64,000 nucleotides of DNA from an uncultured Bacilli bacterium. Its GTDB lineage: Bacteria > Bacillota_I > Bacilli_A > RF39 > UBA660. The stretch lies in NCBI GenBank assembly GCA_910587325.1, contig CAJUKB010000001.1:53883-117882 (forward strand), read 5' to 3'. The position numbers and the translations under genes are program-made. The notes beneath the pieces were generated by a model, which ran no database searches, was not told the DNA's origin, and saw nothing but the letters and a program-made list of their open reading frames with translations. The stretch's first letter is position 1. Each line of letters opens with the position of its first letter. This document shows positions 34,179 through 53,962 of this stretch, one piece after another.

Positions 34179-34553
34179 CTAGTAGCCTTTTTTCTTATAA
34201 TATTTATACAATTCTTTAAAACGATTAAAATGAATAATTTCTCTTTGTCTTAAGAATAGTAGTGGCCCTATAACGTCTTCATCGGTTGCAAGTTCTATTA
34301 AATTTTCATAAACCGCTCTTGCTTTTTCTTCTGCCGCCATATCCTCAGATATATCCGCAAGCACATCTCCTGTTACAGCAAAGTAGCTAGTTGTAAAAGG
34401 AACTCCACTTGCATTTGACGGATAAACTCCTAAAGCATGTTCAGAATACATATCTCCTAAACCTGCTTCCTTCATTTCTTCAACACTTGCGCCTTCTGTT
34501 AATTGTTTAATCATTGTAGCAATCATTTCCACATGCCCAAGCTCTTCTGTACG
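34179..34553 (-). pseudogene. cotJC: 3' two-thirds of spore coat protein CotJC (manganese-catalase family), truncated by prophage insertion
   Basis: The frame reads stop-RTEELGHVEMIATMIKQL...EDMAAEEKARAVYENLIELATDEDVIGPLLFLRQREIIHFNRF. Compare B. subtilis CotJC ...TDIGTEEFAHLEMIATMVYKL...EDIAAEEKARATYQWL...FLREREIVH. About 65 N-terminal codons are missing. Stop at 34554-34556. Confidence 0.8.
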
Positions 34554-34582
34554 TTAACGATAGAGATGTAAAACAGTTATAA

Positions 34583-36391
34583 TTAAAATCTAGGGTGTAT
34601 TGCTATTGAAAAGTTATTCTCGTAACCACGTCCGCCTTTTTCTTTCTTATAATCTACATAAGATATAACAGACTTTAAGAGTTTGTTTTTCTTTTCTGCT
34701 GTTTTTACTCTCCAATATGAATCAATTACTTTTTCTATTTTTGGAAGCAATTTCTCGATTTTATCTTTATTAAGTTTTGTCTGGTACTTAGATAGTTCTT
34801 TTGTTGTTGCATTTATTTTATCTTTTATTACTTTAGAGCGTTTTGTAAAATCTTCTGGAGTATATACCTCTTGTTCTAAGAGTTCGTATTGCTTATCTAA
34901 TTGTTTATTATATTTCTCTAAGTCTTTACATAATGCTTGATACATTATATTATCGTCTTCCTCGGCTGGATTATACGTCGTTAGGAGCTCTTTTTGTGTG
35001 TTTAGATACTCTCGTAACCCTTTTATAACTTCCGCCTCTACAAGCGATAAATTAGAGCCTATATTGGTACAATGTGCTTTCTGACATATCAAGGTATCTT
35101 CGTGAGGATCTATTGTGTTCTCCTCGAATGTTGTAATAGCCTTGTCAAACTCAGTAGTAGTAATGTTTAGTAGTTTCTTTAAGTCTTCCCATTTATCAGC
35201 ATAAGGCATAGTAAACTTATCTTGCGTAGAACTAAACCAATGATCTACGCTGCATTTACTAACTCCTAAAGCTGTGGCTATATCTCTTAGACTGTAATCG
35301 CCTTTATGTTCTCTTAGACATAGGCGTAGTTTTTCTTTATCTACTTCATACTTACGCCTTAGTTTAGGCTCTTGCTTTTTATTTTCATAATAAGGACGTC
35401 TTTGCATAGATCTTCCACAATCAGCACATCTAATTAAAGTAGCTAGTGGATTCTGTAATTCGGTACCATGTGTAGTACTTACTTGTTTAGGTTGGATTCC
35501 TTGAACTATATTGAATAGATCTTCTTCTATTATAGCTGGGTGCAATCCCTCGACAAGTATTATTTCGTCCTTAGTTCCTTTTTTACGTTTCTTCACAATT
35601 TGCCCGTTAACTAAGCTCTTATGTTGTTTGTTACTGTTCCACCTTATCTTACCTAGATAAACTGGATTAGATAGTATTCCTTTAATTGTGGACGGAGTCC
35701 ATACATCTGACTTTTTAGGACGAAACTCTAAAGTATTAAGCCAGTTGCATATAATATCGTGTCCCATGCCGTCAGCACGTTTCTTATACATCTCTTTTAC
35801 GACTTCTGCTTCTTCTGGTATTGGTTCTAGTGTAAAACCTTTGTCATATTTTAATTTTACCTTTTTATACCCAAAAGGAGGCTCTGACGCACAATATTTA
35901 CCAGCTAGTACGTTTGCTAACCTTTGGCGTTGCATACGTCTGTTAATAGCTTTATATTCACGCCTAGACATAAATAAACCGAACTCAAAGTATTCTTCGT
36001 CGTCGTCGCTGTTTGGATCATATATTTTATTAAGAGTAATAATTAAAGTATTTGAATACTTAAAAGCCTGTGAAATAGTACCTTGATCTTTAGAATCTCC
36101 ACGAGTAAGACGTTCTACTTCTACAACTAAAATTCCGTCAACAGTTCCAGTCTCAATGTCTTTTAAGACCTTTTGTATTTCTGGTCGTTCTTGGATTGAT
36201 TCTCCCGAAACTACTTCACGATATATATGTCGTATCTTTATACCAAGTTGTTTAGCTCTATCTTTTAAAAACTTCTCATGTTGTTTTAGCGTATCGAATT
36301 TTTTAAGTCTTTCTAGTTCCATATCGGCTCTTGATTTTCTTAAATATGCGTCATAGATCCCGTTAGGATCCAGCGTGATTACATTATACAT
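34583..36391 (-). CDS. large serine recombinase (phage integrase)
   Basis: 602 aa. Resolvase-type N-terminus AYLRKSRAD...REVVSGES. Recombinase region and zinc-ribbon CADCGRSM. Coiled-coil C-terminus. Adjacent to the cotJC junction. Confidence 0.9.
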   Translation of the reverse strand: MYNVITLDPNGIYDAYLRKSRADMELERLKKFDTLKQHEKFLKDRAKQLGIKIRHIYREVVSGESIQERPEIQKVLKDIETGTVDGILVVEVERLTRGDSKDQGTISQAFKYSNTLIITLNKIYDPNSDDDEEYFEFGLFMSRREYKAINRRMQRQRLANVLAGKYCASEPPFGYKKVKLKYDKGFTLEPIPEEAEVVKEMYKKRADGMGHDIICNWLNTLEFRPKKSDVWTPSTIKGILSNPVYLGKIRWNSNKQHKSLVNGQIVKKRKKGTKDEIILVEGLHPAIIEEDLFNIVQGIQPKQVSTTHGTELQNPLATLIRCADCGRSMQRRPYYENKKQEPKLRRKYEVDKEKLRLCLREHKGDYSLRDIATALGVSKCSVDHWFSSTQDKFTMPYADKWEDLKKLLNITTTEFDKAITTFEENTIDPHEDTLICQKAHCTNIGSNLSLVEAEVIKGLREYLNTQKELLTTYNPAEEDDNIMYQALCKDLEKYNKQLDKQYELLEQEVYTPEDFTKRSKVIKDKINATTKELSKYQTKLNKDKIEKLLPKIEKVIDSYWRVKTAEKKNKLLKSVISYVDYKKEKGGRGYENNFSIAIHPRF

Positions 36392-46966: not shown

Positions 46967-47434
46967 ATGGATAACTATTATAGACAAATAGCTGATCTAC
47001 AATGTGCAGTAGAACGTCTAAGAACCTTACAGGAAAAACAAGGAACCATATTCGATAAATACTTCCCTGTTACTGTAAGATATAAGCCTAGTTCTTCTAC
47101 TACTGGTAGTGTCGGCAAAGATAAAATGGTTTCTTACTTGGAGGAATTAGAAGAAACTGGAATCGCTAAAGAACTGGAAGAAGCTATCAAGAACGTTAAT
47201 ACAATCCAGAATCGTCTAAGACGTATGGAGGTTATACTCCAAGGGGTTGAGGACATATCTGGTAACGATAGTTTAGAATATAAGGTAATAAGTTTAAAGT
47301 ATTTTGAGGAAAGAACTTATACATTACAACAGATAGCTGACAGACTCCACTATTCGATAGATAGAATCAAACAAGTAAGTGCTGATATTGAAAGAAAAAT
47401 AAAAGAAAACTATTACACCAAAATTACACAGTAA
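46967..47434 (+). CDS. putative late-gene transcriptional activator (sigma-70 region-4-like HTH; ArpU/RinA-type by position)
   Basis: C-terminal YKVISLKYFEERTYTLQQIADRLHYSIDRIKQVSADIERKI resembles a sigma region 4 HTH. Last gene before the packaging module. Confidence 0.5.
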   Translation: MDNYYRQIADLQCAVERLRTLQEKQGTIFDKYFPVTVRYKPSSSTTGSVGKDKMVSYLEELEETGIAKELEEAIKNVNTIQNRLRRMEVILQGVEDISGNDSLEYKVISLKYFEERTYTLQQIADRLHYSIDRIKQVSADIERKIKENYYTKITQ

Positions 47435-48309
47435 TAGTGGTAAAATGGTATTGTGGAATAATTAAAAAGGCTCGTAGATTGCCCCCGAAAAAGAAAAATC
47501 TACACTACATCTCGGTAGCGGTGTGATGGTCGCATAAGGGTTCCATATTCCCGAGGTTAGGTTCGAGTCCTACTACCGAAACCAATAAGTTATTATTCAT
47601 TATTCGTATATAGACCTAAGAGTCAGTAAGGAGAGAGACCTTACATCACTTCCTTTCTATAAAGACACCCAGTAAATGGCTCGTATAATAAATAAATCGA
47701 GAAGCCTAGAACTCGAAATTCTAGGTATGGAAGTCGGAGACAGCGATACTATGACTTTAAGTTAAGGATTCACTATATTTTACTTGAAAAAGGTTTTCAT
47801 ATAGTTGGTGCCGTATCAGAACGTGATTATAATTGGGAGATTTTTAGCTTGATTGCACCCATTGACAAAGTATTAAAGCAGTTCGTTTAGCTATCAAAGG
47901 AAGAACTTAAAAATGTAGAATAGCCGTTTTTGCAAGTATTGTATGTTAACAATTATAGTATGTTCACGTGGACGAACAGGGAGCCACGTTGGTTACGACC
48001 ACCGTACGCTAAGCTATTAGTCGTAATTCTAAGTAAGTTGTCGTAATGGGCAACCACGGTTATTGCTTAGAGAAATAGCTATACATGGGAAACTAAAGGT
48101 ATAAGTCTTTTCTTTCCCGCCACGCTAGTATCACACTAGCCAACCCCTTTTTATTCTTTTTAGATAAACTAAAAGCACTACTTATCTTAGGTAGTGTACT
48201 GATAATATGTAAGAAGTGGCGGTGCAATTCCCCTAACGACAAGATCGTCCTAGAGGCAATATTATCGGTACAGTATCTATGATACAATATTGTTATTGGA
48301 GGTATTATT
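47435..48309 (+). ncRNA. candidate large structured non-coding RNA region (ORF-free 875 nt; strand assumed from context)
   Basis: No + strand ORF of 60 aa or more. Locally about 43-45% GC at 47941-48060 by my count. tRNA-like T-arm GGTTCGAGTCC at 47560-47570. Local hairpins at 47626-47644, 47705-47725, 47966-47989, 48124-48140 and 48176-48196. Confidence 0.4.
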
Positions 48310-48513
48310 ATGGATCAGAATACTTTTATAGGTAAAGTCCAAAGTAAGGAAATCAAAAACGGAACAAAGTTTAAGGTATATAATCAAGATAGACTCTTGA
48401 TAGGTACTGTTGGAGTCATAGACACAACAATAGTATATTTAGATATGCCAGTAATTCCAGACGATATACTCGTAGGTAGTTACATCTTTGAGGAAGTTAA
48501 AGAAGAACAATAA
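48310..48513 (+). CDS. hypothetical phage protein
   Basis: 67-aa ORF with GGAGGT RBS. Confidence 0.55.
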   Translation: MDQNTFIGKVQSKEIKNGTKFKVYNQDRLLIGTVGVIDTTIVYLDMPVIPDDILVGSYIFEEVKEEQ

Positions 48514-48554
48514 CAAGAGTAGATACTACTCCTCTAATCATATAGAGAAACTAT

Positions 48555-48588
48555 AAGACATTACATTCCAGAGCGTGATGTCTTTTTT
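48555..48588 (+). terminator. hairpin plus T-run
   Basis: AAGACAT (48555-48561) pairs with ATGTCTT (48578-48584), then a T-run. Confidence 0.45.
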
Positions 48589-48628
48589 CGTTTTATAAGG
48601 AGGCGTTGCGTATGAGAGCAGCAGATAC

Positions 48629-48892
48629 ATGAACTTAGATAAGTATATAAAGCAGTTCTTTATTAGTCTGTCTAAGTTTAGTCAATATTACGATATAACC
48701 ATTACTACCTTTGAGAAGTACAACGAGGAATATAATTGTATTTCCAAGAGTATGTTACTTCAATTCAAAGAACCACAGACAAAAGATACTTATATACAGT
48801 ATAAGGAATGGTATAAGAACAAGCAGGAGCTTGTAGTTAGGTTGAATGAGTTATGGCAAAGCCGAAAACAGACAAAGAACAAAAAGAAATAG
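48629..48892 (+). CDS. hypothetical phage protein
   Basis: 87-aa ORF overlapping the terS start by 40 nt. Confidence 0.45.
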   Translation: MNLDKYIKQFFISLSKFSQYYDITITTFEKYNEEYNCISKSMLLQFKEPQTKDTYIQYKEWYKNKQELVVRLNELWQSRKQTKNKKK

Positions 48893-53595: not shown

Positions 53596-53795
53596 CAGAA
53601 CTAGAGTTTTTAAAGTTTTATGATAAAAATGTAAGAGTTATACTTAACGACGGTACATCTATAACAGGCTATGTATATACTTTTACACGTTCTGTTGATA
53701 GTGATACTGGTATCGCTTCTATCTCGTTAGAATCTAGCGAGGGTTATATCGAAATAATGCAGAATGATGTTAAAAAAATTACTATTACACCTTGA
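53592..53795 (+). CDS. small Sm-like (LSm-type beta-barrel) protein, candidate partner of the MuF C-terminal module
   Basis: 67 aa. VRVILNDGTSITGYVYTF resembles an Sm1-like motif. ATGA overlap with the MuF gene. Confidence 0.5.
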   Translation: MTELEFLKFYDKNVRVILNDGTSITGYVYTFTRSVDSDTGIASISLESSEGYIEIMQNDVKKITITP

Positions 53796-53843
53796 TTACA
53801 CTTTATTAGTGTTATTATGGTATCGTGATAATTTACAATGAAA

Positions 53844-53865
53844 ACTAGCTACGGCTGGTTTTTTT
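53844..53865 (+). terminator. rho-independent terminator inside the structural module
   Basis: ACTAGC (53844-53849) pairs with GCTGGT (53854-53859, one G-U pair). A flanking A-run and T-run extend the stem. T6 follows. Confidence 0.6.
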
Positions 53866-53962
53866 AGTTGATTATACGCTTACTCGATTACAAGAGAATA
53901 AAACGGTTGGTTCGACTTTACTGCCTACAAGCAGAATAAAAACTGAGAGGAGAAGATAATAT

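Follow-up and report, generated by a model that had tools for sequence, protein, structure and literature searches.

An ORF-free island ahead of the packaging genes

The window, the whole 64,000-nt stretch of DNA from an uncultured Bacilli bacterium that was analysed, contains a prophage whose end is marked by a large serine recombinase gene (34583-36391) inserted into a truncated Mn-catalase gene. Between the gene for a late, sigma-like regulator and the packaging genes lies an island that is the only long ORF-free gap in this prophage (Table 1). The initial annotation had described this gap as exceptional among tightly spaced genes, and this description was borne out: the island contains zero + strand ORFs of at least 60 aa, while from 38406 to ~62200 the only other + strand gaps of at least 150 nt without such an ORF measure 177 and 167 nt. 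An ORF search of the island also confirmed that the single ORF originally listed there, which is antisense and has a TTG start (48093-48287), is its sole ORF of at least 60 aa. Searches with the island ORFs returned zero family matches in Pfam and a single weak match in PHROG (phrog_6679, E = 0.03), and blastn with the island found no match among GenBank phages. The GC content is 37.4% in the island and 35% in the prophage; at 47941-48060, where a local rise to about 43-45% had been reported, we measured 44.2%.

Table 1. Features of the island, with window coordinates and the basis or context of each
Feature	Position	Strand	Basis or context
ORF-free island	47435-48309	+	between late (sigma-like) regulator gene and packaging genes
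Motif P, promoter-like, GTAAAATGGTATTGTGGAATAATTAAAA (TGn + AATAAT, extended -10 look-alike)	47440-47467	+	directly after sigma-like regulator gene
Leader hairpin, GTAGAT ... ATCTAC, 18-nt A-rich loop	47474-47503	+	covariation
T1, tRNA-like cloverleaf, anticodon-like CAU loop, 3' ...CCGA-A-ACCA end	47512-47584	+	tRNA model, covariation
Cassette M1, T-arm-like hairpin at 47626-47644	47590-47665	+	common to L005, L007, L152, L154, L157
Cassette M2, ~170-nt non-coding module, hairpins CTCG..CGAG and CCTAGAA..TTCTAGG	47661-47833	+	nine homologues
Variable spacer/cassette	47834-47954	+	closest relatives only
C motif, ~120-nt structured RNA, five helices	47962-48080	+	covariation, 29 distinct sequences
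T2, tRNA-derived minihelix, acceptor GGGAAA/TTTCCC, T arm AAAGG-TATAAGT-CTTTT, then G-CCA-C	48087-48123	+	covariation
S, copy of host small RNA core: hairpin GCTAGT-ATCAC-ACTAGC and single-stranded CAACCCCTTTTTATTCTTTTT	48124-48166	+	identity to host consensus
H, hairpin CACTAC..GTAGTG	48176-48196	+	conserved
X:X' helix, 48197-48208 with 48259-48270, enclosing a variable 50-nt insert	48197-48270	+	covariation
Conserved AGTATCTATGATAYAAT, TGnTAYAAT extended -10 look-alike at 48280-48288	48271-48309	+	directly after X'
Ribosome-binding site (RBS) GGAGG	48298-48302	+	of the 67-aa ORF opening the packaging operon

Comparison with ~27 unique related phage islands, all of which have the same gene context, upheld the earlier view of a non-coding region and showed its conservation among related phages, with no ORF preserved among homologues and indel lengths that are not multiples of 3. 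Genome GCA_011262095.1 (contig JAAGKN010000723.1) is one example of another carrier of this prophage. The homologous islands range in length from 484 to about 1300 nt, and their cassettes are present, absent or reordered from phage to phage. The island is a modular + strand array of separable cassettes of about 30-170 nt each. A covariation check on the homologues found compensatory changes on the coding strand in most cassettes, whose structure is maintained in this way as + strand RNA. Folding energies gave z-scores of -2.09 for the + strand of the island, -0.91 for its - strand and -1.42 for a terminase coding control of equal length; this thermodynamic signal is weak and the z-scores are too feeble to discriminate. 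The structures are judged real because of covariation, not folding energy.

The five hairpins and both 7-mers that had been picked out in the island were located exactly where they had been placed, and each of these hairpins is a conserved element in homologues: the M1 hairpin (47626-47644), an M2 hairpin (47705-47725), helix P1 of the C motif (47966-47989), a hairpin corresponding to hairpin 2 of a host small RNA (48124-48140) and hairpin H (48176-48196). The junction that CCGCCAC and GTGGCGG had been suggested to enclose is not conserved across relatives, in that the segment bearing GTGGCGG is unique to the window and relatives that keep CCGCCAC lack the partner.

These hairpins had been taken together as one ornate RNA of ~0.8 kb, belonging to the GOLLD or ROOL class or to an unclassified analogue. 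GOLLD and ROOL are structured, non-coding RNAs of Bacillota prophages that typically adjoin tRNA genes, and ROOL, of about 581 nt, contains six multistem junctions together with three pseudoknots (PMC5737381). The island resembles these families (RF01998, RF03087; PMC5737381, PMC12286853) in being non-coding, structured and situated, as had been claimed, in a prophage beside tRNA or tRNA-like genes, but a setting of this kind does not define them. A single RNA would suit 875 nt of ORF-free prophage DNA with adjoining tRNA-like elements and several real, conserved hairpins, on a + strand that folds slightly better than shuffles. However, the coding control of equal length has a z-score of -1.42, and an Rfam covariance search of 47200-48700 on both strands, with permissive filters and E up to 10, gave no GOLLD or ROOL match; no Rfam family reached its gathering score anywhere in the window. 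An unclassified single-RNA analogue is contradicted by the spread of homologue lengths and by the turnover and changed order of the cassettes, which are separable units rather than one fixed large architecture, and the proposed long-range closing helix is unconserved. The single-RNA reading is already largely refuted, and we regard it as highly improbable. No c4-2 RNA (Rfam gathering score 41 bits) is listed for the window island, and a cassette in L007 and L008 reaches only 24-25 bits against that model (E about 0.5-0.8).

tRNA-like elements and the C motif

Motif P is almost invariant in the homologue alignment A1, with its TGTGnAATAAT core at +9 to +18 past the gene stop in 27 of 27 unique islands, and a second, diverged copy occurs at about 53807-53836 in the window and also in relatives. 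It is a putative promoter. In the leader hairpin that follows, three of six pairs vary on both sides (GTAGAT/ATCTAC, GTAGAG/CTCTAC, GCTGAT/ATCAGC) and 99% of alignment cells are paired. Pairing of its loop with the seed of S was considered and dropped, since the loop is not conserved.

At the start of the island, the initial annotation had recognized a tRNA-like T-arm/acceptor element. The tRNA-like element is real, but it comprises a whole cloverleaf-like structure (47512-47580), present in 26 of the 27 unique islands. T1 scored 27.3 bits with the Rfam tRNA model (E = 0.004), just below the gathering score of 29, and ARAGORN called neither T1 nor any other tRNA in the window or in L001, L005, L007 and L008. 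Covariation was seen in the acceptor stem (U-A to C-G) and at two pairs of the anticodon stem, and T1 together with the leader hairpin had 91.9% of cells paired, compared to no more than 50% in slid controls. The anticodon-like loop is invariant, yet T1 departs from tRNA universals in C8, C33 and a T stem of 3-4 bp, and in most relatives its D loop is GAUAGUC, without GG. T1 is an element with covarying cloverleaf helices of tRNA type that nevertheless falls below the canonical tRNA detector and universal-position criteria. We also examined T1 as a mimic of initiator tRNA (CAU, GGG:CCC, a possible C1xA72); this was rejected, as GGG:CCC is unconserved in relatives and both the D and the T junction are disrupted once the register is shifted.

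The next cassettes also retain their helices through sequence change. The M1 stem TAAGG/CCTTA becomes GAGGG/CCCTT in homologues and, in M2, CTCG/CGAG becomes CTCA/TGAG. The nine homologues of M2 do not conserve a 29-aa ORF and contain indels whose lengths are not divisible by 3, and the module, which precedes C in the window, follows C in L159 and L169. A resemblance of M2 to purine riboswitches (CGUAUAAU ... ACUAUG) was dismissed, its flanks being unpaired and Rfam giving no match. By blastn, the variable spacer is shared only with L001/L193 and, in part, L150; a sigma-70-like match, TTGCAA-18-TATAGT at 47930-47959 (9 of 12 positions), lies just upstream of C.

In the C motif, 97.3% of cells are paired across 29 distinct sequences drawn from several lineages of phages, and 18 of 32 pairs have changed on both sides, giving a covariation score of 0.459 compared to at most 0.085 in slid controls, with none of 500 shuffles as high, while many unpaired bases (CGAAC, GUAAUGG, GGUUAUUGC) are invariant. 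No Rfam family, including any ribozyme family, matched the motif. In several phage lineages C precedes a real tRNA or a tRNA-like element by 6-8 nt: in the window this element is T2, and in L154 and L195 C lies about the same distance upstream of real tRNAs. It also occurs beside tRNA arrays located away from terminase genes (L183, L195, L186). ARAGORN placed tRNAs in the same slots or beside C in L154, L183, L195, L186 and L187. Two of the window's cassettes, T1 and T2, are tRNA-like, with real tRNA genes in the same slots in relatives. We suggest that the C motif may be a new structured-RNA class functionally coupled to phage tRNA arrays, either as a candidate leader that may control or catalyse maturation of the following tRNA or as an RNA that is released and active in its own right.

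The C motif alone turned up outside this phage lineage, an observation that counts against the overall explanation favoured below.

Theta (HDV-like) ribozymes likewise adjoin the tRNAs of gut Caudoviricetes infecting Bacillota, where they are proposed to process the tRNA 3' trailer and aid maturation (PMC10879173). C resembles them as a small structured RNA coupled to gut phage tRNA genes, but differs in its place upstream of the tRNA 5' end, in its five-helix fold and in matching no Rfam ribozyme.

A copied host small RNA core and the 3' end of the island

The second tRNA-like element, T2, covaries at three of five pairs in its T arm, and its acceptor strands change in step (GGGAAA/TTTCCC, GAGGAA/TTCCTC, GGGGAA/TTCCCC, GGGTAG/CTACCC). 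A longer version in L001 scored 35.3 bits with the Rfam tRNA model, and the T2 slot in L154 holds two real tRNA-Ile genes. In L152, T2 carries the D-arm sequence GTGGCGGAATTGGTAAACGC, which we take to be close to that of bacterial tRNA-Leu, and we judge T2 to be probably tRNA-Leu-derived. The base preceding T2 was U in every homologue read by eye, and U at -1 suits RNase P; together with the acceptor-T-arm minihelix, the steady 6-8 nt spacing between C and T2 and the real tRNAs placed directly 3' of C in L154 and L195, this gives indirect support to a putative cleavage by RNase P or RNase Z at the tRNA-like elements. Some phages encode CCA in T2, and since Bacillus subtilis RNase Z is inhibited by an encoded CCA, the 3' cut may need another nuclease.

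Fused directly to T2 is S, whose first 38 of 43 nt (48124-48161) match a host small RNA consensus exactly, the remainder (48162-48166) lying where this consensus varies. S has the hallmark of the host family, the hairpin GCUAGU-AUCAC-ACUAGC followed by invariant CAACCCCUUUUUAUUCUUU, and its C/U-rich seed, AACCCCTTTTTATTCTT, is invariant in all phage copies. The shared 22-mer is present without mismatch in the genomes of more than 120 species of gut and rumen Bacilli. The host unit combines a promoter (TTGACA-17-TAnnAT) with three hairpins and a terminator that covaries, and in about half of the loci lies between recG and a pyruvate:ferredoxin oxidoreductase gene; its stand-alone features include a 5' hairpin, ACCAAUUC..GAAUUGGU, and an intrinsic terminator whose loop is CAGGGGG. 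Rfam contained no match to it, and the S and seed strings were absent from the first 200 of the 408 supplementary files of a catalogue of unnamed candidate RNAs (PMC10690425 or PMC8040213). The host small RNA is probably uncatalogued.

In the phage, the T2 minihelix replaces the host 5' hairpin, and H and X:X', which lack a U tract, replace the terminator; with these stand-alone gene features replaced, S is a chimeric copy of the core and not a complete member of the host family. T2-S may represent a phage-borne copy, on a tRNA scaffold, of the seed of a core host small RNA. Neither the window nor ~1 Mb of host flanks contained a site complementary to the host small RNA, and sequence identity is therefore the sole basis of the putative mimicry by S. 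The two commonest neighbours of the host small RNA were identified, and no toxin gene family was prominent among its commonest neighbours. L150 retains only the seed of S, and S is dispensable for this phage type, since L154 lacks it entirely. As an attachment site, many phages harbour the 3' portion of a gene for a tRNA or small RNA, and S was considered in this light; this was rejected because the prophage ends at the serine recombinase in the Mn-catalase gene and S lies mid-genome in all relatives.

The presence of intact tRNAs in the corresponding slots of relatives, the absence of ARAGORN calls and the violation of canonical tRNA rules by T1 and T2 would also be expected of a degenerating tRNA cluster, or a gene remnant, without present function. 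However, T1, C, S and H remain 80-100% identical and show compensatory changes across islands in which the neighbouring regulator protein has diverged to 59% identity, and neither the anticodon-like loop of T1 nor the S seed varies. We therefore think decay very unlikely.

Downstream of S, hairpin H is paired in 100% of cells over 17 sequences, its closing pair being C-G in nine and U-A in eight, and in other phage lineages it is found again downstream of C. The X:X' helix is Watson-Crick or G.U at 11 or 12 of 12 positions in 16 independent versions, with no more than three G.U pairs each, and its strands covary (GATAATAT/ATATTATC, GACAACAT/ATGTTGTT, GATATTTA/TAAATATT), scoring 10-11.5 compared to 8.4 +/- 0.8 for the best-partner control. 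Because of the G.U pairs, X:X' can be functional only as + strand RNA. The CUGAUGA that follows H had suggested a hammerhead ribozyme; this candidate was discarded, as this stretch, CUGAUAA in the window, forms one side of the covarying X:X' helix, and Rfam reported no ribozyme.

This evidence bears on whether the island is a site in DNA instead of RNA, such as a protein-binding site, a pac/cos site or operators for the neighbouring sigma-like regulator. Pac/cos sites typically lie just upstream of terS, as the island does; X and X' form inverted repeats, the phage has two copies of motif P, and several contigs stop inside the island. Against this, the helices accept G.U but not C.A, which points to one strand only, covariation keeps pairing rather than sequence, and some cassettes are relatives of tRNAs. 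The stops, in six Logan contigs, all fall 28-29 nt into S, the segment shared with the host, as a repeat rather than genome termini would predict; in a 31-mer assembly graph, a repeat in common with host DNA of the same sample would give such ends. A DNA-level function is, in our estimate, improbable.

Directly past X', the AGTATCTATGATAYAAT motif and the RBS region were found in all relatives examined, and the TGnTAYAAT motif (48280-48288) is a putative promoter. No + strand intrinsic terminator was detected within the island, so the array could simply be the 5' leader of the late mRNA, a structured UTR of the packaging operon whose hairpins would tune read-through, stability or translation. 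Such a cis-acting leader would also be consistent with the promoter-like motif at the start of the island, a second copy of which precedes the next late gene block, with X' and the following motif abutting the RBS, and with the C-H-X:X' unit of an unrelated phage lineage (L187, L198), which sits directly upstream of a small ORF, TerS and TerL. Against it are cassettes that are reordered, lost or swapped for real tRNA genes while the flanking genes are unchanged, a separate, well-conserved extended -10-like motif between the array and the first ORF, and C at tRNA arrays away from terminase genes; nor does it account for the seed of a host small RNA. We consider a leader function rather unlikely.

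A proposed remodelling of a tRNA-cluster locus for small RNAs

Taken together, our results give about an even chance that the island is the tRNA-cluster locus of the phage, refashioned as an operon that encodes small structured non-coding RNAs. Its tRNA-like elements would probably serve as processing signals, and one of its products would mimic a host small RNA. The array would be transcribed rightwards from the extended -10-like motif at 47440-47467, possibly with internal promoters too, and the host's RNase P and RNase Z, or 3' exonucleases, would cut at T1 and T2, releasing C with a defined 3' end and S with H as a small RNA of ~70-110 nt. The RNase P cut at T2 and the hairpins H and X:X' would then substitute for the 5' hairpin and terminator of the host small RNA. 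Since it carries the host seed, the phage S RNA would engage the same mRNAs or protein as the host small RNA, and could impose or saturate host small-RNA regulation during the late phase. H and the X:X' helix may protect the 3' end or provide a double-strand RNase site, and would separate the RNA array from a late mRNA starting at TGnTACAAT (48280-48288). That both specific proposals hold together, with C a new RNA class coupled to tRNA arrays and T2-S a seed capture of a host regulon, we put forward only tentatively.

Parts of this proposed arrangement have precedents. The tRNA region of phage T4 contains a tRNA cluster with small stable RNAs, 'species 1 and 2' or rnaC and rnaD, whose function is unknown and which are co-transcribed with the tRNAs and matured by host tRNA-processing enzymes. 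The island similarly belongs to a phage tRNA-type cluster, with real tRNAs in the same slots in its relatives; unlike T4, it lacks a canonical tRNA, C, M2 and S are unrelated to the T4 RNAs, and S copies a host small RNA. In the tRNA-miRNA units of murine gammaherpesvirus 68, in MALAT1-mascRNA and in the 3' external transcribed spacer of E. coli glyW-cysT-leuZ, an RNA end is set by RNase P or RNase Z at a fused tRNA or tRNA-like fold. The direct fusion of T2 to S, read here from the DNA, is comparable, but what it carries is the copied seed of a host small RNA, neither a miRNA nor a sponge.

Phage PhiTE carries pseudo-ToxI repeats that imitate the ToxI antitoxin RNA, and S is similarly a phage-held sequence copy of a host-encoded small RNA, presumably serving to usurp its interaction. 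Unlike ToxI, the host RNA copied in S is chromosomal and syntenic with recG and pyruvate:ferredoxin oxidoreductase, and to our knowledge the capture by a phage of a chromosomal regulatory small RNA, as opposed to an antitoxin, has not been described. RsaE/RoxS, C-rich small RNAs of Bacillota, pair with G-rich ribosome-binding sites. The host small RNA shares with them an unpaired CCCC-U-rich stretch, located between its hairpins and terminator, but differs in that it had no Rfam match and the target search found none.

The island is a compact set of independently evolving RNA cassettes at a tRNA locus of uncultured gut and rumen phages, and not another GOLLD or ROOL. T1 and T2 are scaffolds that have lost the decoding features of tRNAs yet are still under selection. 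The C motif, with its very strong covariation and its tie to phage tRNAs in several lineages, is a testable object, as are these scaffolds and the host small RNA, which is conserved in more than 120 Bacilli species and has had its seed copied by a phage. If the phage copy acts via this seed, it would offer a clear example of a virus that rewires the post-transcriptional control of its host, and would provide a handle on the function of the host RNA.

Gene setting and homologues of the island

Between a 155-aa regulator (46967-47434; sigma-70 region 4 match, PHROG 36) on its 5' side and a 67-aa ORF on its 3' side, the prophage carries an island that is real and interesting but was mislabelled in the initial annotation. 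Further 3' come an 87-aa ORF, a small-terminase-like gene with an HTH, and the genes for the large terminase and the portal. As claimed there, no plus-strand ORF of at least 60 aa lies in 47435-48309, and from 38406 to ~62200 only two other plus-strand gaps of this kind occur, of 177 and 167 nt. The coordinates, hairpins and local GC rise reported for the island were likewise all correct (44.2% GC at 47941-48060). The folding-energy z-score was -2.09 for its plus strand and -0.91 for its minus strand, while coding sequence of the terminase, used as a control, gave -1.42; folding energy is thus unconvincing by itself as evidence for structure.

Towards the right edge of the window (62222-63900), two more plus-strand stretches of 680 and 801 nt lack an ORF of at least 60 aa; minus-strand genes or ORFs running off the window may cover them. 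At the left end of the prophage, a large serine recombinase (602 aa, minus strand, within 34179-36391) adjoins a 117-aa Mn-catalase gene fragment (profile positions 70-190 of 284), and the phage therefore appears to be integrated into the Mn-catalase gene. We considered the S element of the island as an attachment site and rejected it, since the prophage boundary is the serine recombinase in the Mn-catalase gene.

The island is not a member of the GOLLD or ROOL class, as had been proposed: an Rfam search of the whole 64-kb window returned no family at its gathering score. When permissive filters were applied to both strands of 47200-48700 (E up to 10), the sole meaningful match was the tRNA model at 47512-47580, whose 27.3 bits fall short of the gathering score of 29. 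ARAGORN called no tRNA in the window, and no DNA similar to the island was found in GenBank phages. GOLLD and ROOL occur in prophages near tRNAs (PMC5737381), and this context alone is what the island has in common with them.

Using the large terminase and regulator proteins against IMG/VR, together with the contigs of 31 regulator homologues, we collected ~27 distinct homologous islands, all located between the regulator gene (5') and the packaging genes (3'). These range from 484 nt (L155) to ~1300 nt (L159) and are mosaics: the block at 47609-47825 lies 5' of the C motif in the window and 3' of it in L159 and L169, and other blocks are found in only a subset of homologues. Small island ORFs are not kept among homologues, indels are not multiples of three, and island ORFs matched no Pfam family. 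A PHROG search of these ORFs gave a single, weak match (E = 0.03) to phrog 6679, of unknown function; it involves a 34-aa ORF lying antisense to the C motif (47953-48057, minus strand) and may reflect ORFs miscalled across C-type RNA in other phage annotations.

The expectation of covariation among homologues held, with compensatory changes in most cassettes, and a decaying remnant is a less likely reading of the island. What did not hold was a fixed architecture, given that blocks are reordered or present in subsets only. A single large RNA, including an unclassified analogue of GOLLD or ROOL, is disfavoured by the modularity of the islands and is also less likely. Instead, our results show a modular array of conserved, structured RNA elements on the plus strand, located in the tRNA locus of a phage group. 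Two of the elements derive from tRNAs, another is a new motif coupled to tRNAs, and a further one copies the core of a host small RNA in chimeric form.

Features of the island and a related downstream motif (window coordinates)
Feature	Position	Strand	Description
Motif P	47440-47467	+	nearly invariant; TGn-AATAAT extended -10 look-alike
Second, diverged copy of motif P	~53807-53836		TTACAC...TAGTGTTATTATGGTATCGTGATAATTT; at 3' end of small ORF
Leader hairpin	47474-47503	+	scored jointly with T1
T1	47512-47584	+	tRNA-like; tRNA model 27.3 bits plus covariation
M1		+	conserved non-coding module; hairpins maintained through sequence changes
M2		+	conserved non-coding module; hairpins maintained through sequence changes
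C motif	47962-48080	+	five helices, many invariant unpaired bases
T2	48087-48123	+	acceptor and T-arm minihelix, G-CCA end
S	48124-48166	+	copy of host small RNA core
H	48176-48196	+	hairpin
X:X'	48197-48208 with 48259-48270	+	12-bp helix around variable insert
Exit motif	3' end of island		conserved AGTATCTATGATAYAAT (TGnTAYAAT) and RBS of 67-aa ORF

tRNA-like elements, the C motif and X:X'

Across 17 distinct sequences of the leader hairpin and T1, 91.9% of cells were paired, compared to at most 50% when helix partners were slid, with both-side changes in six pairs and a covariation score of 0.174 (at most 0.063 slid). T1 is tRNA-like and not a canonical tRNA: its anticodon-like loop (CAU) is invariant, and it departs from tRNA in C8, C33, a T stem of 3-4 bp and the usual absence of G18-G19. 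In T2, the T arm covaries and both sides of the acceptor change together between phages (GGGAAA/TTTCCC, GAGGAA/TTCCTC, GGGGAA/TTCCCC, GGGTAG/CTACCC). Longer versions carry a D arm, which in L152 presumably resembles that of tRNA-Leu closely, and the tRNA model gives the T2 of L001 a score of 35.3 bits.

The C motif had 97.3% of cells paired over 29 distinct sequences, both-side changes in 18 of 32 pairs and a covariation score of 0.459, compared to at most 0.085 with slid partners; none of 500 shuffles equalled it. The Rfam search gave no family for this motif. Its closing helix is separated from T2 by a constant 6-8 nt, with U at position -1 in every case read. A pattern scan also found the motif in other phage-like contigs without T1 and S.

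The island locus is the tRNA locus of this phage group. In L154, which is closely related to the window's phage, the T2 and S slot is occupied by two real tRNA-Ile genes. Beside the C motif in other contigs, ARAGORN called real tRNAs: tRNA-Leu(UAG) ~7 nt 3' of C in L195 (estimated from coordinates and an alignment), Trp, Thr, Thr and Val after a tRNA-like element in L183, nine tRNAs in L186 and, in L187, Ile(UAU) together with Met(CAU). Four related phage arrays carry tRNA-Ile(UAU) (L154:3980-4136, L186:3804-4686, L187:4581-4734, L195:82-157), adjoined in two of them by tRNA-Met(CAU), and the CAU-bearing T1 may descend from a gene of such an array.

In 16 independent versions of X:X', 11 or 12 of 12 positions pair, with at most three G.U each, and the sequences covary. 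Because G.U pairs are tolerated, X:X' works only as plus-strand RNA; a site acting solely as DNA, for which such paired repeats might be taken, is less likely. L188, L190 and L191, which are phage-like contigs, have two or three tandem H and X:X' units with the C motif present or absent, which suggests that these units are repeats of one structural element and may be the means by which cassettes are shuffled. A further cassette (GGTGGAAAAGAGACACGCCAG..GGGTAATCCGAAAGGAACCC..) is found at L007:1189-1269 and L008:2292-2366, and in L155 and L175; it is weakly like c4-2 antisense RNA (24-25 bits, where the gathering score is 41), and for the window island no matching hit to that model was listed.

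The S element and its host small RNA counterpart

The 22-mer TAGTATCACACTAGCCAACCCC (48126-48147) occurs exactly in the genomes of more than 120 species among the matches listed, all of them MAGs from gut or rumen that carry the label Bacilli, Tenericutes, Mollicutes or Erysipelotrichaceae. There it lies in a stand-alone unit of ~105 nt (for example L041:2610-2735), with a strong sigma-70 promoter (TTGACA-17-TAnnAT) and three hairpins, among them hairpin 1 and hairpin 2 (GCUAGU-AUCAC-ACUAGC). The unit also has an invariant single-stranded CAACCCCUUUUUAUUCUUU and a terminator, in which the stem shows heavy covariation and the CAGGGGG loop is conserved; this loop could base-pair with the unit's CCCC stretch. 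Among 120 loci listed, recG neighbours the unit in 56 and a pyruvate:ferredoxin oxidoreductase gene lies on the other side in 51. The unit matched no Rfam family, and the gene is apparently uncatalogued.

Phage positions 48124-48161 equal the host consensus exactly through hairpin 2 and the C/U-rich seed, and the last 5 nt of S (48162-48166) are at positions where the consensus varies. The phage element is a chimera in which T2 replaces hairpin 1 and H/X:X' replaces the terminator. The seed is invariant in all phage copies, the hairpin and junction being slightly variable, and in L150 the seed ACCCCTTTTTATTCT alone is retained after C. Six independent Logan contigs (L151, L160, L170, L172, L178, L182) end 28-29 nt into S, as would fit assembly branching at a 31-mer that the phage has in common with the gene for the host small RNA, both being present in one sample.

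Proposed function and parallels

We propose that transcription starts from the conserved extended -10-like motifs and that RNase P and RNase Z, or exonucleases, would process the transcript where T1 and T2 lie. S and H, once released, may serve as the phage's own version of the host small RNA and act via the common seed, with H/X:X' as a putative RNase III-type element or one that protects the 3' end. As the main rival, the island may be a cis-acting leader of the late operon and nothing more: in another phage lineage (L187, L198), C-H-X:X' lies just 5' of a small ORF, TerS and TerL. The replacement of cassettes by real tRNA genes in relatives and the presence of the host RNA core count against this rival. 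At 53780-53867, an intrinsic terminator (AAACTAGCTACGGCTGGTTTTTTT) directly follows the second motif P copy and precedes the head-gene block, an arrangement also present in L005, L007 and L008 that could indicate antitermination control.

Among the nearest functional parallels are the tRNA cluster of phage T4, with its embedded stable RNAs, and the tRNA-linked small RNAs freed by tRNA processing (MHV68 tRNA-miRNA units, mascRNA and the leuZ 3' spacer), as S and H would be here. Pseudo-ToxI, a phage mimic of host RNA, is another, the mimicry here being suggested by sequence identity. Theta ribozymes associated with tRNAs in gut phages (PMC10879173) also belong among these parallels. Candidate RNAs without names, from phages and microbiomes, have been compiled in large catalogues (PMC10690425, PMC8040213). 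We rate the island as a new version of a known kind, the phage tRNA and small-RNA cluster, in which two components look new: the C motif, judged against Rfam, and the host small RNA seed copied onto a tRNA scaffold.
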